Shown: one piece after another, positions 5,848 through 42,125 of the stretch
Numbering within the stretch: position 1 is the stretch's first letter
Layout of the letters: every line of letters starts with the position of its first letter
Source: an uncultured Alphaproteobacteria bacterium
Lineage (GTDB): Bacteria > Pseudomonadota > Alphaproteobacteria > Methylaequorales > Methylaequoraceae
NCBI GenBank assembly: GCA_964473045.1
Contig: CAYYMX010000001.1
Span: 1-42,125 of the forward strand
Direction: 5' to 3'
Length of the DNA: 42,125 bases
Translations under genes and position numbers: made by a program
The notes under the pieces: model-generated
Told to the model about the DNA's origin: nothing
What the model saw: only the letters and a program-made list of their open reading frames with translations
The model's database searches: none

Positions 5848-5854
5848 TGCAAAA

Positions 5855-6826: not shown

Positions 6827-6832
6827 TTTCTT

Positions 6833-10372: not shown

Positions 10373-10416
10373 TAATTTCCTTCATTATGTTATCCATTAG
10401 ATATTAATATAATATA

Positions 10417-11586: not shown

Positions 11587-12275
11587 AATTCAACTTCTTT
11601 TTCGTTCATGGGTGGGGTTTTGATTCTAGTTTTTGGGGTTTAGTAGGGAATGTCATAAAGGAAAAAAAATATTTCAATTCACTTCAATACATTAATCTTG
11701 GTTTTATTAACAAAAAAGATTTTCCAAAAAAAACTCAATCACAAAACAGTGTTTTTATCGTTCATTCTTATGGATTGAACTGGTTCTTAAAAAAAAAGAT
11801 AAAATGTAGAGTATTGATAATTTTTTTTGCAGCACCTAATTTTGTGCGATTCCAAAAAAATCCATTTTTAAAAAAAAGACTCTTAAATCAAATGATAGAA
11901 AGATTTCATCAATATCCTGAAGAGGTTATTACTAATTTTTATAAAAACTCAGGGTTAAAGACTAAATTAAAAAATAATTTTAAAAAAGTTAACTATAGAA
12001 ACCTTTTAAATGCTCTTGATGAACTGTTAAATGATGATTTGCAGGTAGAATTTGATGATTTAGATTGTAATATTTTTTCTGTTTTTTCATTGAAAGATAG
12101 AATCTTCAAACCATCATTGGATAGGATAAAAGAACTAAAATGTAAAAAACATACTATTAAGTTATTAGATGTAAATAATCATGCTATGCCTAGGATTGAA
12201 CCAAAAAAAACCTTTGATCTAATTGATGGTTTTCTTAGGTCTCTTGAAAGAAAAGATTGTGAAAAAAAAAATTGA
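11583..12275 (+). CDS. alpha/beta-hydrolase, putative pimeloyl-ACP methyl ester esterase (BioH-like)
   Basis: 230 aa. FVHGWGFDSSFW oxyanion-region motif as in BioH, candidate Ser in VHSYG, candidate Asp (SLKDRIF) and His (NNHAMP). Sits between bioF and bioC with ATGA overlap. The call rests on position and weak motifs. Confidence 0.55.
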   Translation: MKFNFFFVHGWGFDSSFWGLVGNVIKEKKYFNSLQYINLGFINKKDFPKKTQSQNSVFIVHSYGLNWFLKKKIKCRVLIIFFAAPNFVRFQKNPFLKKRLLNQMIERFHQYPEEVITNFYKNSGLKTKLKNNFKKVNYRNLLNALDELLNDDLQVEFDDLDCNIFSVFSLKDRIFKPSLDRIKELKCKKHTIKLLDVNNHAMPRIEPKKTFDLIDGFLRSLERKDCEKKN

Positions 12276-13011
12276 AAAATCTTTTGATAAAGGAGCAAAT
12301 TCATACGATAAATATTCGATGATTCAAAAAAGCATTTCAGGCTACCTTGAGCTGATGCTTGAAAAATTTTTAAAACAAAAAAACCTAAAAAAAGAAATCT
12401 CTGGATTAGAGCTAGGATGTGGTACAGGTGATTTTTCAATCAAACTCATAAAGAAAATTAATTTTGAAAAGATTCACTTAATAGATATTTCAAAAGAAAT
12501 GATTGGAATAGCCAAGAAAAAGATCAAATTTAAAAATGTTTCATTTCAATATATGGATTTTGATAAGTATAAAGATTTCAGGAAATTTGATTTTATTTTT
12601 TCAAACATGTCCTTACACTGGTCTGAAGATTTTTATAAATTGTTAAAATTTATATTAAATGAAATGCCAAAAAAATCTTTTTTTCTTTGTTCATTTTTAA
12701 ACTCTTCAAGTTTTAACTATTTCAAAAAAATAGAAAAATATGAGGGGGAAATTTTTTTTAATAATTTTCCTAACATGAAAAAAATAAACAAAATTATTAA
12801 TTCTGAAAATCTTTTTATTTACCAAAAGGAAATTTCATTAAAACGAAAATTTAAAAATCCCATGGATTTTTTTGGTTATTTAAAAAGAATTGGTGCAAAT
12901 GCTAAGTTAAAAAAAAATAAAAGTAATTTATTTTTTTTAAGAAAATTTAATAATGAATTTATAATAAATTTTGATGTTAGTTGTATCATTGTAGAAAAGT
13001 TAGAAGATTAA
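12259..13011 (+). CDS. bioC: malonyl-ACP O-methyltransferase
   Basis: N-terminal SFDKGANSYDKYSMIQK and SAM motif LELGCGTGDFS. Start chosen as GTG 12259. The track ORF begins at 12223, but that extension overlaps the upstream gene. Confidence 0.8.
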   Translation: MKKKIEKSFDKGANSYDKYSMIQKSISGYLELMLEKFLKQKNLKKEISGLELGCGTGDFSIKLIKKINFEKIHLIDISKEMIGIAKKKIKFKNVSFQYMDFDKYKDFRKFDFIFSNMSLHWSEDFYKLLKFILNEMPKKSFFLCSFLNSSSFNYFKKIEKYEGEIFFNNFPNMKKINKIINSENLFIYQKEISLKRKFKNPMDFFGYLKRIGANAKLKKNKSNLFFLRKFNNEFIINFDVSCIIVEKLED

Positions 13012-16880: not shown

Positions 16881-18164
16881 ATGACAGAACAAGCTTTTTT
16901 TCAGAGTGGTTTAACTCAAACAGATCCTGCTATATTAAAAGCTATTGAGAGTGAATTTCATAGACAAAATGACCAAATTGAATTAATTGCATCAGAGAAC
17001 ATTGTGTCCAAAGCGGTTTTAGAAGCACAGGGTACAATTTTGACAAATAAATATGCTGAAGGTTATTCTGGAAAGAGATATTATGGTGGTTGCGAGCATG
17101 TTGATGTAGTTGAGGATTTGTGTATAGAAAGAATTAAAAAATTATTTAATGCGAAATTTGCAAATGTACAAGTTCACTCAGGATCACAAGCTAATCAGGC
17201 AGTTTTTTTAGCTTTGCTAAAGCCTGGAGATACTATTATGGGTATGTCGTTGGCTGCCGGGGGACACCTAACCCATGGAGCACCACCAAATGAGTCTGGC
17301 AAATGGTTTAATGCTTTACAGTATGGAGTGAGAAAAGAAGATGCTTTAATAGATTTTGATGAAGTAGAAAAGCTTGCTTTAGAAAATAAACCTAAACTTA
17401 TTATTGCTGGAGGTTCTGCTTATCCAAGAATAATTGATTTTAAAAAATTTAGAGATATTGCTGATAAAGTCGGAGCTATTTTTCTTGTTGATATGGCACA
17501 TTTTGCTGGTTTAGTAGCTACTGGATTTCATCCTAATCCCCTAGACTATGCAGATGTAGTGACATCAACTACTCATAAAACCCTTAGAGGTCCTAGAGGT
17601 GGGATAGTTTTGACCAACAACTCTGACAATGCAAAAAAAATTAATTCTGCTGTTTTTCCTGGGCTCCAAGGAGGCCCTTTAATGCATGTGATTTGTGCTA
17701 AGGCTGTTGCTTTTGGAGAAGCTTTAACACCTGAATTTAAAAAATATATTCAATCCGTTGTTGAAAATGCCAAAACGCTGGGTGAGGTGATGATTGATAG
17801 AGGGCTTGAAGTAGTTTCTGGTGGAACTGATACTCACCTAGTCTTAGTCGATTTAAGACCAAAAAAAATAACGGGAAAAGCGGCTGAGAAATCACTCGAA
17901 AACGCTGGAATTACATGCAATAAGAATGGAGTTCCTTTCGATCCTGAGAGTCCATTTGTTACTTCTGGGATCAGACTAGGTTCTCCAGCAGGTACTAGTA
18001 GAGGATTTGGTGTAGAAGAGTTTAGAACCATTGGAAATTTAATTGGGGATGTGCTGGATGGTCTTTCTAAAAATCCTGAAAATAACTCCTCCATTGAAAA
18101 TGATGTTAAAAGTAAAGTTAAATCGCTTTGTACTGGCTTTCCTATATATGGTTCTGTAATTTAA
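16881..18164 (+). CDS. glyA: serine hydroxymethyltransferase
   Basis: 427 aa. [27 protein letters not shown]-Lys motif [23 protein letters not shown] upstream. Confidence 0.97.
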
Positions 18165-21423: not shown

Positions 21424-21833
21424 AAAAAAGTAATTTATTAATAATAATTTCAAATTTTTATCCTGAAATTTCTGACAATTTACTAATGGGTTGTGAAAAA
21501 GTTTTGAAGGAAGAAAGTTTCTCCTATGAAAAAGTTTCTGTTGATGGATCTTTGGAAATTCCTTTTATACTTCAAAAATTTAAAGATAGGTATGAAGGTT
21601 TTGTGATTTTGGGTTGTATAATAAAGGGTGAAACAGATCATTATAATGTTGTAAAAGACATTACTTTTAATCAGATTTATAAACTTGCATACGAAAACAA
21701 ATTACCTCTTGGTTCTGCATTGTTAACCGTTGATAATTATGATCAAGCCCTCCAAAGATCGAAAGTTAATGGGAAAAACCTTGGTTCTAAAGCTGCAAAA
21801 GTTTGCATAAATTTAATAAAATTAATGAAATGA
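21420..21833 (+). CDS. ribH: 6,7-dimethyl-8-ribityllumazine synthase
   Basis: 137 aa. VDGSLEIP, ILGCIIKGETDHYNVV motif (canonical GxVIRGxTxHF-like). Operon position after ribBA. Confidence 0.9.
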   Translation: MKKSNLLIIISNFYPEISDNLLMGCEKVLKEESFSYEKVSVDGSLEIPFILQKFKDRYEGFVILGCIIKGETDHYNVVKDITFNQIYKLAYENKLPLGSALLTVDNYDQALQRSKVNGKNLGSKAAKVCINLIKLMK

Positions 21834-27721: not shown

Positions 27722-28678
27722 ATGATTCATTCTAGAATTATTGGATATGGCCATTTTCTCCCAAAAAAAGTTGTAAAAAACAATGATCTGAAAAAGCTAG
27801 TTGATACCTCTGACGAGTGGATATATTCAAGAACTGGTATTAAGCAAAGGCATATAGCTAACAAGAAAGAATTAACTTCTGATTTGGCAATAAGAGCAGC
27901 AGAGAATGCTTTTCAATATGGAAATGTTGATCCAAAAAAAATCGATTATATTATTATGGCTACAACAACTCCAGACGAAACATTTCCATCAACAGCCACA
28001 AAAATTCAGCACCATTTCAAAATAAATAATATCCCATCATTTGATATTCAGGCGGTTTGTTCAGGCTTTATTTATTCTATTCAAGTTGCTGACTCATTAA
28101 TAAAATCAGAAAAAGCTAAGAACATTTTGGTTATAGGAGCAGAGACATTATCTAAAATAGTTGATTGGAAAGATAGGAGAACATGTGTTTTATTTGGGGA
28201 TGGAGCCGGCGCTATTATATTGTCATCAGATAAAAAAAAGGCTGGTGTGTTGTCAACAAAATTATATTCAGATGGATCTTGGCATGATAGCCTTTTTGCT
28301 GATGGTGGGCCATCAAAAAACCAGTTAGTTGGGAAGATTAGAATGAATGGACAAGATATTTTTAAGCAAGCTGTTAACAAGTTGGCTGATGCTACACTTA
28401 AAGGCCTTGAAGAATGCAACCTTAAAGTGAAAAATATAGACTGGTTTATTCCACACCAAGCTAATCAGAGGATAATATTAGGTACTGCAAAAAAAATTGG
28501 GATTGATCTAAAAAAAACAATTAGTACTGTAGAATATCATGCTAATACTTCGGCAGCATCTATTCCATTAGCCTTGTCAAGTTCAATTGAATCTGGGCTT
28601 GTTAAAAAGAATGATATTGTTGCCTTGTGTGCTATAGGTGGAGGGCTTACTTGGGGAAGTTGTATTTTAAAAATTTGA
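27722..28678 (+). CDS. fabH: 3-oxoacyl-ACP synthase III
   Basis: Active-site AVCSGFIY (Cys), HQANQRI (His), HANTSAASIPLAL (Asn), GGGLTWG. Confidence 0.95.
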   Translation: MIHSRIIGYGHFLPKKVVKNNDLKKLVDTSDEWIYSRTGIKQRHIANKKELTSDLAIRAAENAFQYGNVDPKKIDYIIMATTTPDETFPSTATKIQHHFKINNIPSFDIQAVCSGFIYSIQVADSLIKSEKAKNILVIGAETLSKIVDWKDRRTCVLFGDGAGAIILSSDKKKAGVLSTKLYSDGSWHDSLFADGGPSKNQLVGKIRMNGQDIFKQAVNKLADATLKGLEECNLKVKNIDWFIPHQANQRIILGTAKKIGIDLKKTISTVEYHANTSAASIPLALSSSIESGLVKKNDIVALCAIGGGLTWGSCILKI

Positions 28679-28694
28679 ACTATATAATTGTGCT

Positions 28695-29006
28695 ATGGAA
28701 AATAAAGTGTTAACCAAAGCACTAATAGTAAGTCAATTAAATGAGAACATTGGTCTTTCTAAAAGTGATTGCCAGATTTTTTTTGAGTATTTTATTCAAA
28801 TTATTGCCAACGAATTAAAAAACCATGAGTCGGTTAAAATTGTAAATTTTGGAGTTTTTAGTATAAGAAAAAAAAACTCTAGAATTGGAAGAAATCCAAG
28901 AACCAAAAAAGAAGTAGTTATTTCAAAGAGAACAGTTGTAAAGTTTAAAGCCTCAACTACTTTAACAAATTTAATTAATTCAAATAAAATCAATGAAAAG
29001 TTCTAG
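28695..29006 (+). CDS. ihfA: integration host factor subunit alpha
   Basis: 103 aa HU/IHF fold. NFGVFSIRKKNSRIGRNPRTKKEVVISKRTVVKFKAS arm motif. Confidence 0.9.
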   Translation: MENKVLTKALIVSQLNENIGLSKSDCQIFFEYFIQIIANELKNHESVKIVNFGVFSIRKKNSRIGRNPRTKKEVVISKRTVVKFKASTTLTNLINSNKINEKF

Positions 29007-29313
29007 TGCTCTCAAAACTATTGGAGAAGTTTCAAAAGTTTTAGAAGTCCCAGTTTACGTTGTCAGATTTTGGGAGAAAAAATTTAAAAATATTTCTCCC
29101 ATAAAGAAGTCTAGAGGGATGAGGTATTTTGATCAAAAGCAAATTTTATTACTAATGGAGATTAAAAATCTTTTGTATACAAAAAAATATTCTATTGAGG
29201 GAGCTAAGAAAGTTTTGTCAGAAAAAAATATCTCATTAGATATGACTAAGGTTGAATTAATTAGTGAACTTGAAAATTTAAAAGGTGAGATTGAAAAATA
29301 TTTACAATATTAA
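28993..29313 (+). CDS. small MerR-family HTH transcriptional regulator
   Basis: 106 aa. IGEVSKVLEVPVYVVRFWEKKF HTH motif plus a coiled-coil tail. The ihfA-merR-tRNA-Pro order is conserved in alphaproteobacteria. Confidence 0.75.
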   Translation: MKSSSALKTIGEVSKVLEVPVYVVRFWEKKFKNISPIKKSRGMRYFDQKQILLLMEIKNLLYTKKYSIEGAKKVLSEKNISLDMTKVELISELENLKGEIEKYLQY

Positions 29314-29314
29314 T

Positions 29315-29391
29315 CGGGGCGTAGCGCAGTTTGGTAGCGCGTCCGTCTGGGGGGCGGGAGGTCGCTGGTTCAAATCCAGTCGTCCCGACCA
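29315..29391 (+). tRNA. tRNA-Pro (anticodon GGG)
   Basis: Folded by hand. 7-bp acceptor (CGGGGCG/CGTCCCG), D-arm GCGC/GCGC, anticodon stem TCCGT/GCGGG, loop CTGGGGG, T-arm GCTGG-TTCAAAT-CCAGT, encoded CCA. Confidence 0.93.
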
Positions 29392-29402
29392 AAAAGATAC
29401 TA

Positions 29403-29720
29403 ATGGCTGGTTCAATTAAATTGTATTATACTACTTGCGGCAAAATTGTTGATGCCAGAAAATTAGCAAAGAAGCTTCTTGAATCAAAATCTGCTGTTTG
29501 TGTTAATATTATTGGGGATATTGAAAGTCATTTTTTAGACAAGAAAAAAGTTAGTTGTTCAAATGAAGTTGTGTTGATAATAAAGTCAAATTTAGAAAAA
29601 AAAAAAATAAAAAAAATTATTTAATTAAAAAATGATTATGATATTCCGTTCATAATTGAAGTCAAAACTGATAGTGCAAATAAAAAATATTTAAACTGGG
29701 CTTTAGAAGTTATGAAATAA
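29403..29720 (+). pseudogene. cutA: divalent-cation tolerance protein CutA interrupted by an in-frame TAA (29622-29624)
   Basis: ATG 29403. The N-terminal part (LYYTTCGKIVDARKLAKKLLESKSAVCVNII...EVVLIIKS) and the same-frame continuation after the TAA (LKNDYDIPFIIEVKTDSANKKYLNWALEVMK) together align to full-length CutA, about 105 aa. Confidence 0.8.
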
Positions 29721-29779
29721 AGTTTTTTGTTCTGTTGACACTTTTTGTTTTTGAGTTATTTTTCATTGGATTGTTGATT

Positions 29780-30241
29780 ATGTTAACGTATAGTTTAAAG
29801 AAAAAAGATATAAAAAAAAAATGGTTTTTAATTGATGCTGATGGTTTAGTTCTAGGCAGATTGGCATCTAGGATTTCTTATATTTTGAGAGGAAAACATA
29901 AAACTATTTTTACCCCACACCTTGACTGTGGCGACAACGTAATAGTTGTAAATGCTGAGAAGGTTAGGTTAACTGGAAACAAGTCAAAAAAAAAAAAATA
30001 CTATAAGCATACAGGATACCCAGGTGGTTTAAAAGAATCTGATTTTGAAAATATCATAAATGGGAAAGATCCTGGCTTTATTATTAGGAAAGCAGTTCAA
30101 AGAATGCTAAGTTCAAACGCTTTGTCAGAAAAACAATTAAGTAATCTTAGGGTTTTTTCTGGTATTAAGCATGGTATGGATGCACAAAAGCCAGAAGTAT
30201 ATGATTTTGGATCATTTAATAGGAAAAATAAACTTAGTTAG
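29780..30241 (+). CDS. rplM: 50S ribosomal protein L13
   Basis: Start at internal ATG 29780. KKWFLIDADGLVLGRLAS and YYKHTGYPGG motifs. Confidence 0.95.
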   Translation: MLTYSLKKKDIKKKWFLIDADGLVLGRLASRISYILRGKHKTIFTPHLDCGDNVIVVNAEKVRLTGNKSKKKKYYKHTGYPGGLKESDFENIINGKDPGFIIRKAVQRMLSSNALSEKQLSNLRVFSGIKHGMDAQKPEVYDFGSFNRKNKLS

Positions 30242-30244
30242 ATT

Positions 30245-30706
30245 ATGAATAAAGAAGTTAATCCACCAGAATTATCTGAGCCAATTCTTGAGAGTGATGC
30301 AAAGCCTAAATTGGATAAACTTGGAAGGGCTTATGCAACTGGTAGAAGAAAAACATCAGTATCAAGAGTCTGGTTAAAACAAGGCTCAGGAAAAATAATT
30401 GTTAATGGTAAGTCTAGCGACAAATACTTTACTAGAAAAATCTTAAATACTATTCTTGAAGAACCACTAAATAAAACAGATAGGTTATCAGAAGTTGAAA
30501 TCTTTTCTACTGTTTCTGGAGGAGGATTGTCAGGGCAAGCGGGTGCGCTGAGACATGGTATTAGCAGGGCTCTTGTGAACTTTGAACCTACACTAAGAAA
30601 GAAATTGAAAAAACTTGGTTTTCTTACTCGTGATGCTAGAAATGTTGAAAGAAAAAAATTCGGAAAGCATAAGGCAAGACGAAGTCCTCAATTTTCGAAA
30701 AGATAA
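30245..30706 (+). CDS. rpsI: 30S ribosomal protein S9
   Basis: [34 protein letters not shown]-terminal [18 protein letters not shown]. Confidence 0.96.
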
Positions 30707-30709
30707 TAA

Positions 30710-31726
30710 ATGTCTCTTAATGTTTGTATTTTTGGAGTGTCTGGTTATACGGGCTCAAAGTTGTTATATCTCCTTAGTAAGCATAGAAAAGTAAATATTA
30801 AAGGGGTGTTTGGGAAAAAATCAATAAATTATAGTCTTCCAGACCTTTTTCCAAATATTGACAATCTACCAAATATTAAGATTACTAATTACAAAGATTT
30901 TAATTTTGATAGTATCGATATTGTTTTTAGCTGTTTGCCACATGGTAAATTTCAAGAAGAAGTTTTTTTAAAATTGGATAAAAAATTGTCAGTAATAGAT
31001 TTGTCTGGTGATTTTAGGCTACAGAATATATCTGAATATGAGAATTGGTATAATTTAACTCATAAATCAAAAAAATATTTAAAGAGTTTTATTTATGGTT
31101 TAACTGAAATTTATAAAAAAGACATTTTAAAAGCAAAGTATGTTTCAAACCCTGGATGTTATCCTACATCAATATTAATTCCTCTTATTCCTCTTTTAAA
31201 GAGTAAAGTTCTTGGCGATGGTCATGTAGTAATTGATTCTAAATCTGGGGTAAGTGGTGCAGGAAAAAAACCTAAAGTTCAAAATTTATTTGCTGAAATA
31301 AGTGAAAATTTTTTTTCATATGGAGTTTCTAAACATAGACATTATCCAGAGATATGCCAGGAAATTAAAAAATATAATGACAAGGTTTCACTTACATTTA
31401 CTCCTCATTTATTGCCTTTGATTTCTGGTCTTCAGTCTACAATTTATATTGATAAGAAAAATTTTGATAAAAATGATTTAAAACAAATTCTTAAAAAGTT
31501 TTATAAAGGCGAACAGTTTGTCAAGTTGTATAGTGATAATAGAATACCAGAAATTAGAGAAGTTAAAAATACTAATGATATAGCAATTCAAATTTTGAAT
31601 GATTATTCCAAAAAAAAGATAATTATTATAAGTTGCATTGATAATCTCATTAAAGGAGCTGCGGGACAAGCTGTACAAAATATGAACCTAATGTTTGGAT
31701 TTAATGAATCAGAATCATTAATATGA
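30710..31726 (+). CDS. argC: N-acetyl-gamma-glutamyl-phosphate reductase
   Basis: GVSGYTGSKLL NAD motif, active-site SNPGCYPTS, C-terminal DNLIKGAAGQAVQNMNLMFG. Confidence 0.93.
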   Translation: MSLNVCIFGVSGYTGSKLLYLLSKHRKVNIKGVFGKKSINYSLPDLFPNIDNLPNIKITNYKDFNFDSIDIVFSCLPHGKFQEEVFLKLDKKLSVIDLSGDFRLQNISEYENWYNLTHKSKKYLKSFIYGLTEIYKKDILKAKYVSNPGCYPTSILIPLIPLLKSKVLGDGHVVIDSKSGVSGAGKKPKVQNLFAEISENFFSYGVSKHRHYPEICQEIKKYNDKVSLTFTPHLLPLISGLQSTIYIDKKNFDKNDLKQILKKFYKGEQFVKLYSDNRIPEIREVKNTNDIAIQILNDYSKKKIIIISCIDNLIKGAAGQAVQNMNLMFGFNESESLI

Positions 31727-33123: not shown

Positions 33124-34413
33124 GTGCCCAAAAATTTTTTAAAGATTGCCATTGCTGGCATTGGAACGGTTGGTAGTGGACTTCTAAAACTGTTAAAAAA
33201 AAATAACTTTAGAGTAAAGACTAATATAAAAATAAATATTTCAGCTATAGCGTCTAGAAGGAAAATAAACTTTAAAGGTCCAATATATAAAAGAACAAGG
33301 TTTTTTTCGGATGCAAATAAATTAATGGAATTTGACGATTATGACGTGTTGATAGAATTAATTGGTGGACAAGATGGGGTTGCGAAAAAAATTGTTTTTG
33401 ATGCTTTAAAAAAAAAAAAACATGTGGTAACTGCTAATAAAGCTTTGGTTTCAAAATATTGGGATGAATTAAAAATACTGTCAAAAAAAAACAATTGTTT
33501 TATTAAATATGAGGCTGCTGTCGCTGGAGGAGTTCCAATTTTAACTGTAATTGAAGATTTTCTAATCTCTAATAAGATAAAAAAAGTTTATGGAATATTA
33601 AACGGGACTTCAAATTTTATTTTAACTAAAATGCTAGCTAATAATCAAAAATTTGAGAAAATTTTATCTGAAGCACAAAAACTAGGATATGCTGAATCAG
33701 ATCCAAGCTTTGATATTGATGGAACTGATACAGCCCAAAAACTTTCAATATTATCTTCTCTATCATTTAATATAAATTCCAATATTAAATACATTTATAA
33801 AGAAGGTATTCAATGTATTAATCTTTTGGATTTAAAATATGCTGAATCTTTGGGTTATAAATTAAAACTTTTAGGGATAACTGAAAAAAAAAAAAACAAA
33901 GTAATGAGTTTTGTTTACCCTTGTTTGGTTGAAAAAAAATCAGAAATTTCTAATGTGGATGGAGTTTTTAATGGAGTTGTTGTGGAGTCTGATTATTGTA
34001 AAAAAATTTTTTTTCAAGGAGAAGGTGCTGGTGCATTGCCAACAGCAACTTCAGTTTTAAGTGATATTTTAAGCATTAATAGATTGAAAAGCCTGTGTCC
34101 AATCGAAGAGAATATACAAAAAATAACTTTTTTTAAGATTGAAGAAAGGGTTGGTAGTTATTATTTAAGGTTTACTACTGTTGACAAACCTGGGGTCATT
34201 TCAGGAATTTCAAATGAGTTTAAAAAATATAATATTTCTATGAAATCAATGTTACAAAAAGATCCACACTCTAATGATTTTAAATATGCAACAATTGTTG
34301 TTACAACTCATAATTGTGAAGAAAAAGATATGATGAATGCTCTAAGAAAAATTAATTCACAAAAATTTGTTTTGAAAAAAACTGTGTATATAAGAATTGA
34401 AAAATTTATATGA
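33124..34413 (+). CDS. hom: homoserine dehydrogenase
   Basis: IAGIGTVGSG NAD fold, VTANKALV, YEAAVAGGVPI, GILNGTSNFILT, LGYAESDPSFDIDG, C-terminal ACT domain. GTG start. Confidence 0.93.
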   Translation: MPKNFLKIAIAGIGTVGSGLLKLLKKNNFRVKTNIKINISAIASRRKINFKGPIYKRTRFFSDANKLMEFDDYDVLIELIGGQDGVAKKIVFDALKKKKHVVTANKALVSKYWDELKILSKKNNCFIKYEAAVAGGVPILTVIEDFLISNKIKKVYGILNGTSNFILTKMLANNQKFEKILSEAQKLGYAESDPSFDIDGTDTAQKLSILSSLSFNINSNIKYIYKEGIQCINLLDLKYAESLGYKLKLLGITEKKKNKVMSFVYPCLVEKKSEISNVDGVFNGVVVESDYCKKIFFQGEGAGALPTATSVLSDILSINRLKSLCPIEENIQKITFFKIEERVGSYYLRFTTVDKPGVISGISNEFKKYNISMKSMLQKDPHSNDFKYATIVVTTHNCEEKDMMNALRKINSQKFVLKKTVYIRIEKFI

Positions 34414-35601
34414 TTGAAATTGTGTCTGGTATTTTTTTTCCAATTAGTGGAGTAGCGTATTTGTAAAATAAGTTTGTTACATTGTTTTCCTTTCTATTAA
34501 AAAAACTATCAGGCATTTTTTTTGTTTTACCTGCAATATCTGATAATTTGTTAATTTGAAATTTAATTTTATAATTAACTTCAAAATCTTTTCTTTCTGT
34601 AATTCCAGTTGAAAATGAAATTTTTTTTAAATTGGAGAATTGCACAGACTTTTGCCCAATTTCAAAGGCCTCTTTTTGGTCAATTTCAGAAACCGTTCCA
34701 AGAAAACTTCTTTGAGGGTACCCAAGAGTATCTGCTCTGACTCTTGAAATATTAAGTTTTTTCTTTATTTGATTTGACAAATAATCACCCAGAAATCCCG
34801 AGCCAGATAATTGTATATTTCCATGGGCATCAAACTCATTATTCTTCTTCAATTTCTCAGAAATTAGACTTTTATTTTTATCTTGGATCCCTTCAGAAAT
34901 AGCAATAATGCATCTACCATATTTTTTATAGTTTTCTAGAATTTTCTTTAAAAAATCATCCAATGAGAATGGCGTTTCAGGTATAAAGATTAGATGAGGT
35001 CCATCACTTTTTTTTTTTTTTTTAAAAGAGATGTTGCGGCTGTTAAGAAACCAGCATGTCTTCCCATGACTATGCCTAAATAAACTCCGGGTAAAGATTT
35101 GACATCAAAATTTATCCCTGCAAAAAGTAATGCTACATATTTAGCAGCTGAACCGAATCCTGGTGTGTGATCATTTAAAACTAAATCATTATCAATTGTT
35201 TTTGGAACATGGATGCATTGTAGTTTATAATTATATTTTTTAGAATAATTAGAAATAATATTCAGACTGTCAGAAGAATCATTGCCTCCAATATAATAGA
35301 ACTTACTTATTTTTTTTTTTCTTAGAACTTTAAGAACTTCTAAACAATATTTTGTGTCAGGTTTGTCTCTTGTTGACCCAAGAGCAGCTCCTGGAGTGTT
35401 TTGCAACTTTTTAAGTGTATCATTTGACAATCTATTTAGATTTTTGAATTTAGAATTTATTATTCCGTTAACTCCATTTATAGCTCCAATAATTAAAGAT
35501 TTATTTTTTTTTTCTTCTTGAATGATGCCAACTAGTGATTGGTTGATAACATTTGTAGGCCCACCGCCTTGAGCTATTAATATATTATTATTGCTAGACA
35601 T
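34406..35601 (-). pseudogene. pfp: phosphofructokinase (PfkA family, PPi-dependent signature) split by a frameshift in an A16 tract
   Basis: The N-terminal ORF (35601 down to 34990) has AQGGGPTNVIN, IGGNDS, VPKTIDNDL and VMGRHAG. The C-terminal ORF (34963-34406) has ISEGI and TLGYPQRSF. Reading through the tract with one extra A gives LKKKKKSDGPHLIFIPETPFSLDDF, joining both halves. Confidence 0.87.
35008..35023 (-). repeat. A16 (T16 on the plus strand) homopolymer at the pfp frameshift site
   Basis: Counted directly: 16 consecutive T on the plus strand, the second-longest homopolymer in the window. Confidence 0.95.
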
Positions 35602-35623
35602 GAAATTATGGTAAATTTTAATT

Positions 35624-37396
35624 ATGCAGATTAAAACTAAATCACCAGAAGAACAATTAAAAAAAAAATTAAAGTCCAAGCTTTTCTCTATGAAAGGTGC
35701 CTTTTGGGAAGAAAGAGAGTTAAACTCTTTTCAGAAGAGTCAACTCATAAAAACGTTTAATCTCACGAATATTTTTGCAAATTTATTAACTTCCAGAGGA
35801 GTAAATGTTGAAACTTATAAAAGTTTTTTGTCACCAAAGCTTAAAGATTTATTTCCTGATCCAAGCCAGATGGATCAAATGGATTCGGCAACTAAAAAAA
35901 TTGTAGAATTTATTTCAAAAAAAAAAAAAATAGGAATCTTTGGTGATTATGATGTTGATGGAATTACTTCTACAGCATTGGTAGGAAATTATCTTAAAGA
36001 TGTTGGAGCAGAGTTTGAATTTTATATTCCTGATAGAATTAATGAGGGATATGGTCCAAACGTTGATGCATTAAGAAAACTTAAAAAAAAATCTTGTGAA
36101 TTGCTTCTTACTCTTGATTGCGGAACAACATCCAATTCCATTATTGATCAAATCACAAAAGAAAACATTGAAGTAATCATTGTAGATCATCATCAAGAAG
36201 GAGAGACTCTTCCTAATGCACTGTCAATAATAAACCCAAATAAAAAAAAAGATAAATCAAATCTTGTAAATTTATCAGCCGTCGGTGTTGTTTTTTTTCT
36301 TTTGGTTTCTGTAAATAGAGAGCTAAAAAAAATAAAAGATTTTAAAGATAAAGTTCCTAATATGCTGAAATATTTAGATTTAGTTGCACTAGGGACAATT
36401 TGTGATGTGGTAAAGTTAGACTTTATTAATAGGGCATTTGTTAAGCAAGGTTTAAAAGTTTTTAATCAGTCAAAAAACTTAGGGATTAATTCTCTCATAA
36501 AATTCGCTGGGATAGATGGGGAAATTGATGAATATCATTTAGGCTATCGAATAGGACCAAAAATAAATGCAGGTGGAAGAATTGGCAATTCATCTTTGGG
36601 AGCTAAGCTTTTGCTCACTGATAATAAAAATCTTAGTGATGTAATTGCTTCTAAACTTGAGGAATACAACAATATTAGAAAGACTATTGAAAAAAAGGTT
36701 GAAAATGATGCCATCTATAAAATTGATCAAAAAAATACTGGAATAATTTGTGTTAACTCTTGCGATTGGCACCAAGGAATAATAGGTATTGTTGCTAGTA
36801 AACTTACTGAAAAGTTTTTAAGGCCGTCAATTGTAATTTCTGAATCTGAAGAATTATGTAAGGCATCCTGTCGGTCGATTTCTAAATTTAACATAGGTCA
36901 ATTAATTTTTGATGCTATTGAGGAAGGCTTAATTCATTCTGGGGGAGGGCATTTTATGGCTGGTGGATTTTCAATTCAAAAATCAAAAATTAAAGATTTT
37001 AAAGAATATATTAAAGATAAATTTGATAAAAAAAATTTTGAAACAGTTAAGTTTTATGATTGTGAGATAAAACTTTCTTCAATTCACAAAGAATTTTATT
37101 CAGATATAAAAAAGCTTTCACCATTTGGACCAGGAAATCCAAGGCCTAGATTTTTAATTAAAAACTGTTTTGTTAGATTTCCAAGATTGGTTGGAAATAA
37201 TCATTTTTCATGTTTAATTGAAGATTTCTTTGGTAATAGGTTAAAAGGAATTTTTTTTGGAGCTTATGATACAAGTTTAGGTCCAAAACTTGAAAAAAAT
37301 AATAAGGAAATCGATCTTGTTGCAACAATTAAACTTAATAATTGGAATGGCGAGGAAAATATTGAAATCCAGATAGAGGATGTAATTAATTTTTAA
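35624..37396 (+). CDS. recJ: single-stranded-DNA-specific exonuclease RecJ
   Basis: DHH motifs IGIFGDYDVDGITS, LDCGT, VDHH. DHHA1 GGGHFMAGG. Start is ATG 35624 or ATG 35690; the latter gives a more realistic divergent spacer to pfp. Confidence 0.92.
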   Translation: MQIKTKSPEEQLKKKLKSKLFSMKGAFWEERELNSFQKSQLIKTFNLTNIFANLLTSRGVNVETYKSFLSPKLKDLFPDPSQMDQMDSATKKIVEFISKKKKIGIFGDYDVDGITSTALVGNYLKDVGAEFEFYIPDRINEGYGPNVDALRKLKKKSCELLLTLDCGTTSNSIIDQITKENIEVIIVDHHQEGETLPNALSIINPNKKKDKSNLVNLSAVGVVFFLLVSVNRELKKIKDFKDKVPNMLKYLDLVALGTICDVVKLDFINRAFVKQGLKVFNQSKNLGINSLIKFAGIDGEIDEYHLGYRIGPKINAGGRIGNSSLGAKLLLTDNKNLSDVIASKLEEYNNIRKTIEKKVENDAIYKIDQKNTGIICVNSCDWHQGIIGIVASKLTEKFLRPSIVISESEELCKASCRSISKFNIGQLIFDAIEEGLIHSGGGHFMAGGFSIQKSKIKDFKEYIKDKFDKKNFETVKFYDCEIKLSSIHKEFYSDIKKLSPFGPGNPRPRFLIKNCFVRFPRLVGNNHFSCLIEDFFGNRLKGIFFGAYDTSLGPKLEKNNKEIDLVATIKLNNWNGEENIEIQIEDVINF

Positions 37397-37801: not shown

Positions 37802-37877
37802 GTCCCCTTCGTCTAGTGGTTCAGGACACCGCCCTTTCACGGCGGCAACACGGGTTCGAATCCCGTAGGGGACGCCA
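37802..37877 (+). tRNA. tRNA-Glu (anticodon TTC)
   Basis: Folded by hand. Acceptor GTCCCCT/AGGGGAC, anticodon stem CCGCC/GGCGG with loop CTTTCAC, T-arm ACGGG-TTCGAAT-CCCGT, encoded CCA. Confidence 0.93.
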
Positions 37878-37967
37878 TATCAACGTTTGCACTAATTAAT
37901 GATTGAAAATGATAAATTATGCGTTTATATTACACATATAAATTGAACAATACATGAGGGGTTAATT

Positions 37968-38393
37968 ATGAAAAAATTATTCATAGTCATATTTGCTTTT
38001 TTCTTTGTAACTAGTGCCTATTCTGCTGATGCACAAATAGAAATGTTAAATAAACGTGATGATGGTGCAAGGATGGTTTATAGCAAAGAAGTTGTAAAGA
38101 TTGATACAGGACAATCTATAGAATGGGTTGCTAAAGATAAAGGCCATAATGTTGAAATGATAGCAGGTCCAGATGGATCTACTTTGCCTAAGAAAAGTAA
38201 ATTAAGTAAAAACTTTTCTATGACTTTCGATAAGCCTGGAATTTACATATATAAATGCACTCCACATGTAGGGCTTGGAATGATTGGTATAGTAGTTGTA
38301 GGTGGGGATTCATCCAATAAAGACGCTATTTCAAAAGTAAAACTTTCTGGGAAAGCTAAGAAAAAAAGAGACAAACTACTATCAGGAGTGTAA
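37968..38393 (+). CDS. pseudoazurin (type 1 blue copper protein)
   Basis: Signal peptide ending SAYSA. Mature region IEMLNK...DKGHNVE...YIYKCTPHVGLGMIGIVVVG gives the His/Cys/His/Met copper ligand pattern and aligns closely with classical pseudoazurins. Confidence 0.9.
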   Translation: MKKLFIVIFAFFFVTSAYSADAQIEMLNKRDDGARMVYSKEVVKIDTGQSIEWVAKDKGHNVEMIAGPDGSTLPKKSKLSKNFSMTFDKPGIYIYKCTPHVGLGMIGIVVVGGDSSNKDAISKVKLSGKAKKKRDKLLSGV

Positions 38394-38406
38394 AGAGTTT
38401 TTATTT

Positions 38407-38793
38407 TTAATGGGATTTTAAATCTTTCTTTATATCTTCGTGGTCACCTACCACGATATGCCTCTTGCTTTTTGTAACGTATTTTTCTAGTAAGGGTATT
38501 AATATAAGTGGTAGGGAGCCACCAAGCACAATTCCAAAAACCATAGGTCTTAGATGTGGGTCTAAAAGACTAGCGATTAGGTCAGCAATGACATGAGAAA
38601 AAGCAGCTCCAAAAATTCCTGCAATATATCCTTTAGAAACAAATTTTAATAACCTATTTATACTTATGCCTGTGTAAAAACCGATTATTGTTATAAATAC
38701 GTGAATAAATCCAAAAATAAAGCCGCGTAAATTTATGGAACTATCAAAGTATTGTTGGAGTAAATGTTCCATAATGTTATTAATAATGAACAT
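38407..38793 (-). CDS. hypothetical integral membrane protein (3-4 TM helices)
   Basis: 128-aa ORF with hydrophobic segments (GFIFGFIHVFITIIGFY, GYIAGIFGAAFSHVIADLIASLL, MVFGIVLGGSLPLILIPLL). No family recognised. Confidence 0.45.
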   Translation of the reverse strand: MFIINNIMEHLLQQYFDSSINLRGFIFGFIHVFITIIGFYTGISINRLLKFVSKGYIAGIFGAAFSHVIADLIASLLDPHLRPMVFGIVLGGSLPLILIPLLEKYVTKSKRHIVVGDHEDIKKDLKSH

Positions 38794-38804
38794 TTTTAAA
38801 AATA

Positions 38805-39776
38805 ATGAAAGCTATAATTTTAAAAAAGAATGGTGGAACAGAAGTTTTAGAATTAAAGGAAATTCAATTAAACAAGCCAAAAAAAAATGAAGTTTTAATT
38901 GAACATGTTGCGATAGGTTTAAACTATATAGATGTATATCATAGAACAGGTATCTATCCTGTAGACTTGCCTTCTGGTATAGGACTTGAAGCCTCTGGAA
39001 TTATTAGGGAGGTTGGCTCTGATGTTAGAAAATTTTTCGTAGGTGATAAAGTAGCTTATGCTGCAGCGCCTTTGGGATCATATGCTACGCATAGGTTATA
39101 TCCAGCTAAAAATATTGTAAAGATTCCTAATAATATAGATTTAGATATAGCCGCATGTATAATGACAAAAGGTTTGACATCTTTTTATCTTCTACATAAA
39201 ACATATCCAGTTTCATCAGGCGAAAGTATTTTATTTCATGCTGCTGCTGGTGGTATTGGCCAAGTTTTTTGTCAGTGGGCAAAGAGTCTTGGCTGTAAAG
39301 TTTTTGGAACAGTTGGCAGTGATGAAAAAATTAAATTGGCAAAAAAATATGGATGTAGTGAGGTTATAAACTATACCAAGGAAGATTTTTCAAAAAGAAT
39401 TTTGGAAATAACTGATGGAAGAGGGGTTTCCGTAGTTTTCGATGGTGTAGGAAAATCAACTTTTGAAAAATCAATCAAATGTCTACAAACTAGAGGAATG
39501 ATGGTTTCTTTTGGTAATTCTTCTGGAGTAATTGCTCCAATAAATGTATTTAAAACTTTACAACCAAAAGGACTTTTTTTTACTAGACCTTCAATGGCTC
39601 AGTACTTAAGAAATAGTAAAGAACTAAAAGAGGCTTCGGACATTTTGTTTAAAAAAATACAATTACGTAAGATAATAATAGAAATTTTTAAAAAATACTC
39701 TTTAAACGATGCAGCTAAAGCTCATCAAGATTTAGAAGGTAGGATTATTACTGGTCCAGCCATTCTTAAGCCCTAG
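38805..39776 (+). CDS. qor: NADPH:quinone oxidoreductase (zeta-crystallin-type medium-chain dehydrogenase/reductase)
   Basis: 323 aa. GLNYIDVYHRTGIYP, AAAGGIGQVFCQWAK nucleotide-binding motif. No zinc-ligand Cys cluster. Confidence 0.88.
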   Translation: MKAIILKKNGGTEVLELKEIQLNKPKKNEVLIEHVAIGLNYIDVYHRTGIYPVDLPSGIGLEASGIIREVGSDVRKFFVGDKVAYAAAPLGSYATHRLYPAKNIVKIPNNIDLDIAACIMTKGLTSFYLLHKTYPVSSGESILFHAAAGGIGQVFCQWAKSLGCKVFGTVGSDEKIKLAKKYGCSEVINYTKEDFSKRILEITDGRGVSVVFDGVGKSTFEKSIKCLQTRGMMVSFGNSSGVIAPINVFKTLQPKGLFFTRPSMAQYLRNSKELKEASDILFKKIQLRKIIIEIFKKYSLNDAAKAHQDLEGRIITGPAILKP

Positions 39777-39813: not shown

Positions 39814-39869
39814 CTTGACTTATTAATAATGATTATTATTAATAAGTTAATGATAATGATTATCATACT
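39814..39869 (+). promoter_or_regulatory. candidate promoter (-35 TTGACT at 39814-39819) overlapped by two tandem Fur boxes
   Basis: 39850-39864 TGATAATGATTATCA is a perfect 7-1-7 inverted repeat (TGATAAT-N-ATTATCA). 39851-39869 matches the 19-bp consensus GATAATGATAATCATTATC at 16/19, and 39824-39842 matches at 14/19. Both lie within 65 nt of the receptor start codon. Confidence 0.72.
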
Positions 39870-39888: not shown

Positions 39889-42075
39889 AATGAATATGTT
39901 AAGAATTAAATCCAAATTTAAAAAATCAAGGTTGGTACCTCAATATACCCGTGAAATGTCATGGTTAACATTTCTTTCAGTTTTTGTTTTTGGCACGAGT
40001 ACAGTTTCACAAGATAATGTTTATGTTTCACCTGATGTTAATGTATTTGATTCACCATACCTAGAGTTTGAGATACCTGGTTCTGGTGATTATATACCTA
40101 AAGAGGACATTACAAAATATAATTTCCAAAACATTAATGATATTTTAAGAAATACCCCTGGGGTATATACCAGAGAAGAAGGTGGTTTTGGTTTGTTTCC
40201 TAACATAAGTTTAAGAGGTGTAAGTACCTTAAGGTCTGCAAAAGTGACTATGATGGAAGATGGAATCAATATAGCTCCTGCACCATATTCTGCTCCAGAT
40301 GCCTATTATTCTCCTTTAGCTGCAAAGATGAACGCAATTGAAATTTTAAAAGGGAGCAGTCAATTTAGATACGGCCCTCACACTACAGGTGGGGTAATAA
40401 ACTATGTAACTTCTCCAATCAATTTTGGAACGAGATATAATGGAAATGTATCTTACGGATCATTTAATGACAAAACCATTCATCATACTGGCAATTGGGG
40501 TATCAGTGGACGTGTTGGTGCTTTTGGAATTCTAGGTGATGTTTATTATAGAGAAAATGATGGTACTAAAGATTTTAATGGTTCAGTGGATTCAGACGGA
40601 GCTGGAAATTCCCATCATTATGGGAGTGACGACGCTGGTGGGATGTTGCAATTCTCTCCAATGGTTAAACTATTATGGCAACTTCCCACCACAAATAATA
40701 TAACTTTAGAACTAAAAGGCTCTTGGAATTCATTAGACTACAATGAAGGTTATACTGGATTAACTCAGACAGACTTTGATGCTGATCCTCACAAAAGATA
40801 TGTTGCCGGACAGTTAGATAATATGAATTCTAATGCATACTCTTATTATGCCAAAGTTCATGCAGATATTACGAGTAATATTGATAATAATACAACATTT
40901 TATTTTAACAAATTTACAAGAGATTGGTTTAAATTGGATAAGGTAAACAATGTATCATTACAAAATATTGTTTCAAAAGCTTATGGAACTGCTGCAAATC
41001 TGACATGTTTAAAAGGTGAATCTGCATGTGATATTAAGTACAAGTCTAATAACAGAAAGTATTACGCTTACGGTGTTATGAATCAAACCAATTTTGATTT
41101 TAATACAGATTGGGCTGGTGTTGAAATGGATCATGATATGACATTTGGTTTCAAGTATCATTATGATAAAATTAATAGAGATCAGTACACAATTACTTAT
41201 GCACAAGCTATTGGAGGAAGCTTGTCAAACGGTAGAACAGCTTTTGATGCTGATAGAAACCAAAGAACGGAAGGGTACGCTTTCTATTTAACAGACTCAG
41301 CTAAGATTGATAAATGGTCCTTCTCGCTTGGTGGCAGGTACGAGTATATGGAGCAATTCTATAGAAATAAGTCAGACGTTTATGACAAAGAAGAAATCTA
41401 TGCTTTTGTTTCTGGCGGAGGATTAGTATATGATTTTAGTCCTGGAGTTTTTACAAATAATGATGATCTAGATTTATTTGCTGGTGTTTACAAAGGTTTT
41501 TCTGTTCCTGGACCGAGTTCTGGAGTTGATAAATCTGAAGCTGCTCTTAACCAGGAAAAAAGTTTAGCAAAAGAATTAGGTATAAGATACTCTACCCCAA
41601 CAATTGGCTTATCTTTGGTTGGTTTTCACACAGAGTTTGATGATTTTATTGTTATAGATAATAGTAATGCTGGTGGTGCTCCTGATAATGGTGGTAAGAT
41701 CAATTCTAAAGGTCTTGAATTTGGAGGTAAATATACTCCCGATAATTTCCGACCATTTAATGGAAATATAAGTTTTTATACAAATTATACATACACGTGT
41801 GCTACTTTGGATGGAGCTGCTACAACTGACGATTCAGAATCAATGTTTGCCGGAGGAAGAGACGGTTCCAATGTACCATACATTCCTGAGCACGTCTTAT
41901 CATTTGGGGCCGACTATGATTATGATAAATTTAGTTTTGGTATTAATATGACTTACCACTCTGAAACTTATGGAACTGCAGAAGAAACTGAAACTGAGGA
42001 GTCGCTTAAAAGTGCTAACGCTAGAGCGGGGAGAATAGATGATGCTTTTCTTCTAAATTTTACTGGTGGATATAA
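39889..42075 (+). CDS. TonB-dependent outer membrane receptor (iron-regulated; FecA-like by plug motifs), possibly frameshifted near its 3' end
   Basis: Not in the supplied track. Hand translation of frame 1 from ATG 39889 is open for 728 codons to TAA 42073-42075. Signal peptide (MSWLTFLSVFVFGTSTVSQ). Plug motifs: NINDILRNTPGVYTREEGGFG, ISLRGVS, VTMMEDGINIAPAPYSAPDAYYSP, IEILKGSSQFRYGPHTTGGVINYVT. Barrel-like Y/G/N-rich strands follow. Confidence 0.88.
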
Positions 42076-42125
42076 AATCAATGAAAATGTATATTTAAGT
42101 TCAAGAAATTTGTATAGAATTAATA

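Follow-up and report, generated by a model that had tools for sequence, protein, structure and literature searches.

Our analysis of the 3' end of the window (the whole stretch of 42,125 nucleotides that was analysed) shows that it carries nearly all of a gene for a TonB-dependent outer-membrane receptor, and we think it probable that this receptor is a Fur-repressed transporter of the FecA-like (ferric-chelate) class, 771–773 amino acids (AAs) long, in a host that belongs to the TMED127/Methylaequorales. The members of this order have recently been recognised as major methanol oxidisers of the open ocean. One genomic study of TMED127 deals with their uptake of lanthanides (lut genes) and not with iron acquisition (PMC12542740). 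Many of them carry an FecA-like receptor preceded by Fur boxes, and they probably use organically bound iron in spite of a genome of only about 1.5 Mb.

The plus-strand frame is open from an ATG at 39890 to the last base of the window, 42125, a run of 745 codons without a stop. Stops make up about 8% of random codons at about 30% G+C, and an open run of this length has a calculated chance probability of p ~1e-27. The first-pass annotation had rightly pointed to a long ORF here that is missing from the ORF track, which lists only short ORFs after position 39776, including an antisense one of 65 AAs at 41009–41206. Its coordinates need correction, since the frame that begins at its start position, 39889, is full of stops, and its 728 stop-free codons become 745. 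The gene is missing from the track because ORFs that run off a source end are not listed, and the practical lesson is that real genes at window edges are hidden when such tracks omit end-truncated ORFs. The same gene is complete in four independent public contigs, from independent metagenomes and assemblies (99.9% DNA identity), where the 2.3-kb frame is unbroken and encodes a protein of 771 or 773 AAs that ends in ...ATANF; the second in-frame ATG, at 39896, is the start chosen by public gene callers. The window follows these four contigs through 42088 and diverges beyond, and its last 37 nt match none of them, so the final 12 or so codons lie outside the real protein. No second copy of this tail was found in the window or in the relatives' loci that were compared; it is either an artefact of the contig's end or a junction with unrelated sequence, and the frame stays open through it by chance. 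The G+C content of the gene (0.33–0.35) lies inside the range of the window, which has about 30% G+C overall and is packed densely with housekeeping genes, and there is no compositional anomaly. The features of the gene and of its product are as follows:

39890..42088, plus strand: TonB-dependent receptor gene, 5' 95% of the CDS (alternative start 39896; from translation, Pfam and the orthologous contigs)
39890..40009, plus strand: predicted signal peptide, AAs 1–40 (read from the translation; Lys/Arg-rich N-region, hydrophobic WLTFLSVFVFG, possible cleavage between TVS and QD)
40031..40048, plus strand: candidate TonB box PDVNVF, AAs 48–53 (family consensus PDVxIF in an alignment of 44 sequences)
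40070..40396, plus strand: Plug domain, AAs 61–169 (Pfam PF07715; 63.7 bits, cut-off 23.9)
40745..42088, plus strand: beta-barrel domain, extent of the Pfam match (PF00593; 127.7 bits, cut-off 27)
42089..42125, no strand: non-native 37-nt tail

Both Pfam families that the first-pass annotation had named as a check thus score above their gathering cut-offs, and its call of a TonB-dependent receptor is borne out by the predicted structure as well. The AlphaFold2 model (pLDDT 84.2, pTM 0.85) has a plug, folded with high confidence, inside a barrel of 22 long strands that cover AAs ~178–770 of the full-length protein. AAs 1–40 are disordered and of low confidence, and the candidate TonB box, assigned by its resemblance to boxes of the DTITV/DALTV type, follows the signal peptide and precedes the plug, within the part of the N-terminus that the model shows as disordered. 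The C-terminal residue of the full-length copies is Phe, the aromatic end that is expected for outer-membrane insertion. The gene is under purifying selection: dN/dS is 0.045 in the one orthologue pair in which dS is unsaturated, and 0.09–0.32 in other pairs in which it is saturated. Judged by its domains and predicted fold, this protein is a real and quite ordinary TonB-dependent outer-membrane transporter.

The closest known counterpart in both sequence and structure is E. coli FecA, which transports ferric dicitrate across the outer membrane (1KMO, 1KMP and 1PO3; NF041676). FecA is the best match in sequence searches of the PDB (E 1.4e-33) and NCBIfam, followed by siderophore and haem receptor subfamilies, and it heads the Foldseek matches of the model (1kmp/1po3/1kmo, E 1.8e-38, TM 0.88, rmsd 3.5 Å), followed by FoxA, PiuA, PqqU, Fiu and FhuA, with TM values to solved receptors of 0.74–0.88. 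The two proteins share the plug within a 22-strand barrel and dependence on TonB, and FecA is iron-regulated by Fur while the receptor gene has Fur boxes (below). They differ in that sequence identity is only about 20%, in that the receptor has no STN match (its plug begins at about AA 60, with none of the N-terminal signalling extension of FecA), and in that its locus lacks the fecIR and fecBCDE neighbours. Its scores against the FecA equivalog NF041676 (124.7–128.2 bits) fall far under the cut-off of 1100, and with the signalling domain absent as well we rejected orthology with FecA. Given these differences the citrate ligand cannot be transferred from FecA to this receptor.

The region between the upstream quinone reductase gene and the receptor gene contains the following elements:

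39815..39820, plus strand: sigma-70-like −35 hexamer TTGACT (putative, read from the sequence)
39824..39838, no strand: weaker upstream Fur-like 7-1-7 palindrome TAATAATGATTATTA, two mismatches to the consensus
39851..39865, no strand: perfect 7-1-7 Fur box TGATAATGATTATCA, 25 nt upstream of the ATG at 39890

Apart from the perfect box, nothing in the window matches the Fur consensus TGATAATnATTATCA exactly; with up to two mismatches there are five matches where 1.02 are expected, numbers that should be read with the caveat that Fur-family boxes are AT-rich and the host genome has 30% G+C. Boxes with no more than one mismatch lie within 160 bp upstream of the receptor in all eight independent orthologue loci, at a density of 10.9 per kb upstream of receptors versus 0.016 per kb elsewhere in the same loci (about 690-fold), and another six loci of the order (~135 kb) have none. 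In the orthologous promoters at loci L005, L008, L010 and L012 the sequence TTGAC(T/A) recurs between the Fur boxes or adjoining them, and a consensus promoter scan gave moderate matches only. The same 15-bp 7-1-7 motif marks the iron-uptake genes of SAR11, another group with small AT-rich genomes, where it serves as operator of the Fe3+ ABC transporter and FTR1 (Hogle et al. 2016, PMC4771312); the SAR11 targets are inner-membrane and periplasmic systems with no outer-membrane receptor among them, whereas here, in a different order, the target is a TonB-dependent receptor. For one TMED127 single-cell genome a fur gene is listed together with its transcription (PMC12542740, Table S5). The receptor gene has conserved Fur-type operators, to which Fur itself presumably binds, and is a predicted member of the Fur regulon. 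The gene of the FUR family that adjoins the receptor in L012 was considered as additional support for iron regulation and dropped, because it is Zur-like and is paired with a ZnuD-like receptor and a different operator. Rfam searches found two tRNAs as their only matches, with no riboswitch or leader RNA 5' of the receptor gene, and a scan for terminator-like sites gave none in its vicinity.

These observations fit a simple scheme. When iron is plentiful, Fe2+-Fur would occupy the two 7-1-7 boxes, which overlap and follow the promoter, and block transcription. When it is scarce the receptor would be made, exported by way of its predicted signal peptide and placed by BAM in the outer membrane, its 22 strands forming a barrel that the N-terminal plug closes. 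There it would bind a small ferric chelate; TonB, acting on the PDVNVF box, would rearrange the plug and let the ligand into the periplasm, where an inner-membrane iron system would take over. We infer that the ligand is iron with citrate or another small chelator, and that the host genome supplies a TonB partner and a route from periplasm to cytoplasm. The first-pass annotation held that the sequence does not reveal the substrate. This is right for the exact substrate; the conserved Fur boxes nonetheless point to iron.

Import of something other than iron is an alternative that we consider unlikely. The ligand would then be a lanthanide chelate for the XoxF methanol dehydrogenase, a tungsten or molybdenum complex for a tungsten-dependent formate dehydrogenase, or another metallophore, and the Fur-like boxes would reflect cross-regulation or a different regulator of the Fur family. 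The methylotrophy of TMED127 depends on lanthanides, and the route by which they scavenge these metals is described as incomplete (PMC12542740); non-iron receptors, PqqU and OprC among them, are also found in the second-best class of structural neighbours. The top structural and sequence neighbours, however, are ferric-chelate receptors. The lanthanide receptor LutH of Methylorubrum extorquens (MexAM1_META1p1785) is also a TonB-dependent receptor for a scarce metal and has a homologue in the same order (AG-892-F10.CDS.109), but a published table and description set this homologue apart as a separate gene of 836 AAs in the methylotrophy island, with no Fur boxes reported, and on that ground we set aside the identification of our receptor as LutH as improbable. 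Several TMED127 genomes do have neighbours that suggest other metals. In some, an orphan TupA-like binding protein (tungstate type; 229 bits, cut-off 400) comes after the receptor and a small ORF (below), and in several these two adjoin a ZnuD-like receptor and a regulator that is Zur-like, so that the local context is a "metal island" of a general kind rather than an iron locus in particular. No TupA-like gene adjoins the receptor in the window's own lineage. The ZnuD-like receptor is likewise TonB-dependent, likewise controlled through a Fur-family palindrome and located in the same flexible island; it differs in belonging to another receptor subfamily, in being far better conserved between L005 and L012 (85% identity versus 57% for the receptor studied here), and in that its promoter, shared with the zur-like gene, has a different, Zur-type palindrome, TGTTATAATATAACA. 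The operator of our receptor is an exact Fur consensus, and the two operators are therefore distinct. An iron chelate remains our preferred ligand.

The receptor gene lies in a variable segment between recJ and msrA, whose left edge is a conserved tRNA gene. The features to the left of the receptor gene are:

37802..37877, plus strand: tRNA-Glu(UUC) (ARAGORN, Rfam; present also in the syntenic loci L001, L010, L015 and L016)
37968..38393, plus strand: pseudoazurin-like copper protein (Pfam, NCBIfam)
38407..38793, minus strand: conserved membrane protein of 121/128 AAs (Pfam/NCBIfam scans and comparison of the site across relatives)
38805..39776, plus strand: NADPH:quinone reductase (Pfam, NCBIfam)

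Comparison of this site across relatives shows that the copper protein and the quinone reductase occur between the tRNA and the receptor only in the window's lineage, where the neighbours of the receptor are the quinone reductase and msrA. Elsewhere in the order the receptor is found at differing flexible sites (beside tRNA-Glu or the tmRNA, and at other places) or is absent, and it belongs to the flexible genome. An accessory trait, as it had been called, is therefore apt in the weaker sense that it is patchy and variably placed within its order, while the stronger sense, a trait atypical for SAR11, falls with the host assignment (below). The receptor is usually paired with a conserved protein of 109–115 AAs that has an invariant His43, a CPxC motif and a C-terminal His, and the two make up a small cassette. 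This Cys/His protein has no meaningful match in Pfam, NCBIfam, the PDB or PHROGs, and is an uncharacterised family that deserves a look. It is tempting, if speculative, to regard the pair as an undescribed two-gene, Fur-controlled cassette for metal scavenging that moves between flexible sites in the ocean's dominant lanthanide-dependent methylotrophs, in which the small protein might act as a partner of a new type, such as a factor for metal release or regulation, and in which the divergent receptor alleles (57% identity, with flanks at 76–93%) might reflect differing chelate specificities or phage pressure; we regard this as possible but doubtful.

A search for tonB, exbB and exbD and for a cognate binding protein or ABC system, as the first-pass annotation had suggested, came back empty on both counts in the sequence covered here. 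None of the three genes was found in the window (Pfam scans of 38 ORFs, a set that excludes seven ORFs of 97–338 AAs at 27722–31726) or in the 10 kb upstream and 10 kb downstream of it (62 kb in total), and no periplasmic binding protein or ABC system adjoins the receptor gene. In L010/L011, by contrast, tonB adjoins the receptor, and it is at the same site in L013, L014, L017 and L018; between the small ORF and msrA the window's lineage has only about 100 bp where relatives have tonB and a second receptor. The companion ORF is moreover frameshifted in all four assemblies of the window's species, so the cassette could be decaying. On these grounds the receptor might be a leftover that no longer works as a transporter in this lineage, perhaps persisting as a surface protein or phage receptor. 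We judge this improbable. The receptor frame is intact in all four independent metagenomes, both Fur boxes are kept, and dN/dS between the window's lineage and its orthologues is 0.13–0.25 (dS saturated). In most other genomes, too, the receptor is not adjacent to tonB, so adjacency is not required, and since the order has a lutH-type receptor it should have a TonB system as well. A working, probably Fur-controlled transporter remains the better description of this gene's product.

The first-pass annotation had guessed a genome of the SAR11 type, and had remarked that cultured genomes of this kind are usually described as lacking TonB-dependent transporters. On the second point the literature agrees: SAR11 are reported to be without TonB-dependent receptors and organic-iron uptake (PMC3400609; PMC4771312), and an atlas of 542 SAR11 genomes does not mention TonB. 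Had the host been a member of SAR11 (Pelagibacterales), the receptor would have been an atypical trait breaking this rule, and would have contradicted the well-established picture of iron use in the most abundant bacterium of the oceans; with a host outside SAR11 this contradiction falls away. In TMED127/Methylaequorales, by contrast, TonB-dependent receptors are known, the lutH homologue being an example. The low G+C content and dense housekeeping genes would suit SAR11, but the reading is largely refuted and we give it very little credence, because the markers compared and the evidence for TMED127 (below) point elsewhere. The RpoB encoded on the window's contig belongs to a closed clade (77–87% identity), followed by Rhodospirillales at 66–67%, with no Pelagibacter among the best 120 matches although SAR11 is abundant in the database. 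The RecJ searches are likewise without Pelagibacter, and their nearest named matches are MAGs labelled "Rickettsiales bacterium" or "MarineAlpha8". We also considered an identity with HIMB59/AEGEAN-169, on account of pfk and the low G+C, but it found no support: TonB goes unmentioned in the papers on these groups, and the SAG names are absent from the supplements of the second HIMB59 paper.

Marker identities, collinearity and gene content together place the host, by an indirect link, in TMED127/Methylaequorales, as an uncultured, streamlined marine methylotroph. The receptor orthologue loci L005 and L008 are from single-cell genomes that GTDB assigns to o__TMED127 and whose 16S is assigned to the S25-593 group. 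Over more than 20 kb the backbone of the window is collinear with a contig of TMED127 (L012/L017, which are one contig of 874 kb), whose flanking proteins are 76–93% identical to those of L005. Contigs of the clade reach 1.55 Mb, and genomes of the order are about 1.5 Mb with about 30% G+C. Finally, the window contains serine-cycle genes for glycerate kinase, a dehydrogenase of the hydroxypyruvate reductase type, a class-V aminotransferase and glyA, a cluster that is consistent with the described metabolism of TMED127.

On translation, the frame beginning at nucleotide 39889, where the first-pass annotation had placed the start of the TonB-dependent receptor gene at the window's 3' end, is littered with stops; the ATG itself lies one base further on, at 39890, and another follows in the same frame at 39896 (local sequence ...aagaATGAATATGTTAAGA...). 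From 39890 the plus strand is open for 745 codons, not the 728 counted earlier, to the window's last base. At about 30% G+C a random codon is a stop in roughly 8% of cases, and on that basis we calculate the chance of such an open run as about 1e-27. The ORF is indeed missing from the ORF listing, which gives only ORFs of 50–65 aa after 39776; the full explanation is that the listing omits frames running off an end. A public full-length copy (P0001, 771 aa, 99% identical) begins at the second ATG. The receptor region is present at 99.9% DNA identity on four independent contigs from the window's species, all of which match the window to base 42088 and thereafter diverge from it, so the last 37 nt (42089–42125, absent from these contigs and from all other compared sequence) are non-native and the last ~12 open codons spurious. 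The likely source of this tail is an assembly artefact at the contig end, or a junction. The full protein runs about 40 residues further and has the C-terminus ...AWVKATANF.

The protein belongs to the TonB-dependent transporter superfamily. The plug and β-barrel that had been read from the sequence are both recognized by Pfam above the gathering scores (Plug, aa 61–169, 63.7 bits; TonB_dep_Rec_b-barrel, aa 286–734, 127.7 bits), a signal peptide can be read at the N-terminus, and PDVNVF, which follows it at the TonB-box position, is a plausible candidate TonB box (alignment consensus PDVxIF). E. coli FecA is the top match in a PDB sequence search (E 1.4e-33). The AlphaFold2 model (from a 44-sequence alignment; mean pLDDT 84.2, pTM 0.85) has a disordered N-terminus (aa 1–59), a plug and 22 long strands, and Foldseek against the PDB again places FecA first (E 1.8e-38, target TM 0.88, 20% identity), followed by FoxA, PiuA, PqqU, Fiu and FhuA. 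The best NCBIfam model is the FecA equivalog, with the generic siderophore and haem/transferrin receptor subfamilies next, all below cut-off. We reject FecA orthology, since the score is 125–128 bits against a cut-off of 1100, a Pfam search finds no N-terminal signalling domain, and no fecIR or fecBCDE genes were found near the receptor. Nor is it the LutH homologue of its order (below), which is a separate 836-aa gene. The receptor is predicted to act like the ferric-chelate gate of FecA and FhuA, under Fur control. Judged by codon comparisons, its orthologues are under purifying selection (dN/dS 0.045 in the sole unsaturated pair; 0.09–0.32 in other pairs).

Interest in the receptor had come from a guess that the host is a SAR11-type bacterium, made because the window is housekeeping DNA at ~30% G+C, and this angle fails. 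The best RecJ matches beyond the window's own species are only 61–62% identical, and those that are named are MAGs labelled 'MarineAlpha8', 'Rickettsiales bacterium' or 'Alphaproteobacteria bacterium'. RpoB, from the same contig, falls in a closed group of ~70 clusters at 77–87% identity, beyond which identity drops abruptly to 66–67% with Rhodospirillales such as Niveispirillum and Azospirillum; there is no Pelagibacter among the best 120 RpoB matches listed. In a genome scan, orthologues of the receptor turned up in four single-cell genomes from GORG, two of which, AG-404-M02 and AG-901-J22, are GTDB o__TMED127, with 16S assigned to Rickettsiales S25-593 and assemblies of 1.27–1.41 Mb at 29.7–29.8% G+C (PMC12416821 supplement). 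An 874-kb contig ties these genomes to the window: at one of its loci (L012) the receptor-flanking proteins are 76–93% identical to those of AG-901-J22, and at a second, containing recJ (L017), its gene order follows the window's for >20 kb: cytochrome chaperone, plsX, fabH, HU, MerR, CutA, L13, S9, argC, OmpA-like, hom, pfk, recJ ... msrA ... secE-nusG. TMED127, proposed as 'Methylaequorales', has genomes of ~1.5 Mb and once carried the NCBI label 'Rickettsiales' (Glass et al., PMC12542740). The following genes of the window look like a fit to the serine cycle and to the methylotrophy described for this order:

4489–8014, minus strand: glycerate kinase (DUF4147/MOFRL), hydroxypyruvate-reductase-type D-2-hydroxyacid dehydrogenase and class-V aminotransferase in a row
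16881–18164, plus strand: glyA

From these markers, single-cell orthologues, collinearity and serine-cycle genes, we conclude that the window very probably belongs to TMED127.

The intergenic region ahead of the receptor is 113 bp long and contains two predicted operators:

39824–39838: 7-1-7 palindrome with two mismatches, adjoining TTGACT, a -35-like hexamer
39851–39865: predicted Fur box, exact match to the classical 15-bp operator TGATAATGATTATCA

At ≤2 mismatches the pattern has 5 matches in the whole window against 1.0 expected; comparison across loci is the stronger evidence. All eight independent orthologue loci, which lie in several different genomic contexts and encode proteins 50–74% identical to one another (97% for the pair L005/L006), carry between one and three boxes, each with ≤1 mismatch, in the 160 bp preceding the receptor. 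Their density there is 10.9 per kb versus 0.016 per kb elsewhere in the same loci, and six further loci of the order (~135 kb) have none. The same 7-1-7 motif defined SAR11 iron-uptake genes (Hogle et al., PMC4771312), and Table S5 of PMC12542740 lists a fur gene, with transcription, for a TMED127 single-cell genome. A perfect palindrome of another kind, TGTTATAATATAACA, occupies the shared promoter of a Zur-like regulator and a ZnuD-like TonB-dependent receptor in AG-901-J22 (L005:14418–14432) and the 874-kb contig (L012:12893–12907); as read from its sequence it is of the Zur type and clearly unlike the receptor's boxes. With two distinct palindromes in the same genomes, the organism appears to separate two Fur-family operators, and the receptor bears the predicted iron type. 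A receptor with such predicted Fur-type regulation is new for this newly recognized, ecologically important methylotroph order, for which one genomic paper (PMC12542740) covers lanthanide uptake and does not describe iron acquisition. The sole other near-consensus site in the window, TGATAATTATGATCA (21731–21745, one mismatch), lies within the lumazine synthase coding region and is probably a chance match. In the receptor promoter of another orthologue locus (L009:~9880–9960), a 21-bp unit, TTGCAATTAATTATTAATAAC, is repeated three times in tandem downstream of a one-mismatch Fur box.

The receptor lies between recJ/tRNA-Glu (37802–37877) and msrA, an interval whose content varies across the order:

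Window's species: pseudoazurin, conserved 121-aa membrane protein, quinone reductase, receptor, frameshifted small ORF
L010/L011: MICAH-domain gene, conserved 120-aa membrane protein, receptor, small ORF, tonB, second receptor
L013, L014, L017, L018: tonB and second receptor
L015, L016: neither receptor

In L013 and L014 the first receptor may lie to the left of tonB, beyond the compared locus; it is absent from the interval in L017 and L018. The receptor is at another site in AG-901-J22, AG-914-I17, AG-404-M02 and the 874-kb contig, beside the Zur-like/ZnuD-like pair in all of these except AG-404-M02, and 5–7 kb from a permuted tmRNA gene in AG-404-M02 and the 874-kb contig; L007 and L009 show yet other contexts. 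This places the receptor in the order's flexible genome, and its behaviour as a mobile cassette is also new. It had been proposed as an atypical accessory trait; accessory it is, but it is not unusual within its order. Between AG-901-J22 (L005) and L012 the receptors (~9900–12300 in both) are only 57% identical within flanks of much higher identity, the second receptor is 85% identical, and the position of the Fur-box receptor relative to the small ORF differs, a pattern suggestive of allele replacement, or of diversifying pressure on a surface protein. After tRNA-Glu (37802–39776), the pseudoazurin-like copper protein and NADPH:quinone reductase are found at this site only in the window's lineage; the 120/121-aa membrane protein is kept in most syntenic relatives examined and was not called in L017/L018.

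Genes accompanying the receptor or related to metal uptake in the compared loci are as follows:

Small ORF: L001:12289–12646 (just past the window end), L005:12366–12692, L006:11982–12308, L008:12434–12772, L009:12383–12721, L010:12383–12727, L012:8215–8541
tonB and second receptor (666–676 aa), recJ-msrA site of relatives: L010:12749–15460, L013:121–2833, L014:123–2819, L017:11889–14626
FTR1-type iron permease with ABC transporter permease and ATPase: L019:1–2252, on the 136-kb contig 8–10 kb before the window starts
Orphan TupA-like (tungstate-type) periplasmic binding protein after the small ORF: L005:12833–13651, L008:12986–13804 (224–229 bits, below the cut-off of 400)

The cassette could be decaying in the window's species, which has only ~100 bp where relatives carry tonB and the second receptor, a small ORF frameshifted in four of four assemblies (it can be read through only with a +1 shift or with an A7 run shortened by one A), and no tonB or exbBD detected by Pfam in the window (minus seven ORFs at 27722–31726) or in the 10 kb on either side. 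Decay is improbable, however: in four metagenomes neither the receptor frame nor either operator is disrupted, and most orthologues are likewise not adjacent to tonB. The second receptor shows only Plug in Pfam in most copies, its similarity to BtuB is weak, and the tonB/second-receptor pair lacks an upstream Fur box at ≤1 mismatch. A weak Fur-like site, CGATAATTATTATTA (two mismatches), lies ahead of the FTR1 gene. The TupA-like gene is adjoined by no permease or ATPase gene in L005 or L008; it is of note because TMED127 is said to use a tungsten-dependent formate dehydrogenase.

The small ORF, conserved at 109–115 aa directly 3' of the receptor in most genomes, encodes a new, uncharacterised Cys/His partner protein. 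Searches of Pfam, NCBIfam, PDB and PHROGs gave no match for it, and among its invariant positions are His43, Tyr46, a CPxC motif and a His at the C-terminus. In L012 the ORF stands apart from the receptor, with two Fur boxes of its own (7935, 7941). Finally, the phosphofructokinase gene (34406–35679, minus strand) reads as two ORFs in the window and L001 and as one intact 397-aa gene in L002, both loci being of the window's species; the copies differ only in the length of a poly-T run (~35000–35012; ~13–16 nt, with 2–3 more T in the window), which points to a homopolymer error or slippage.
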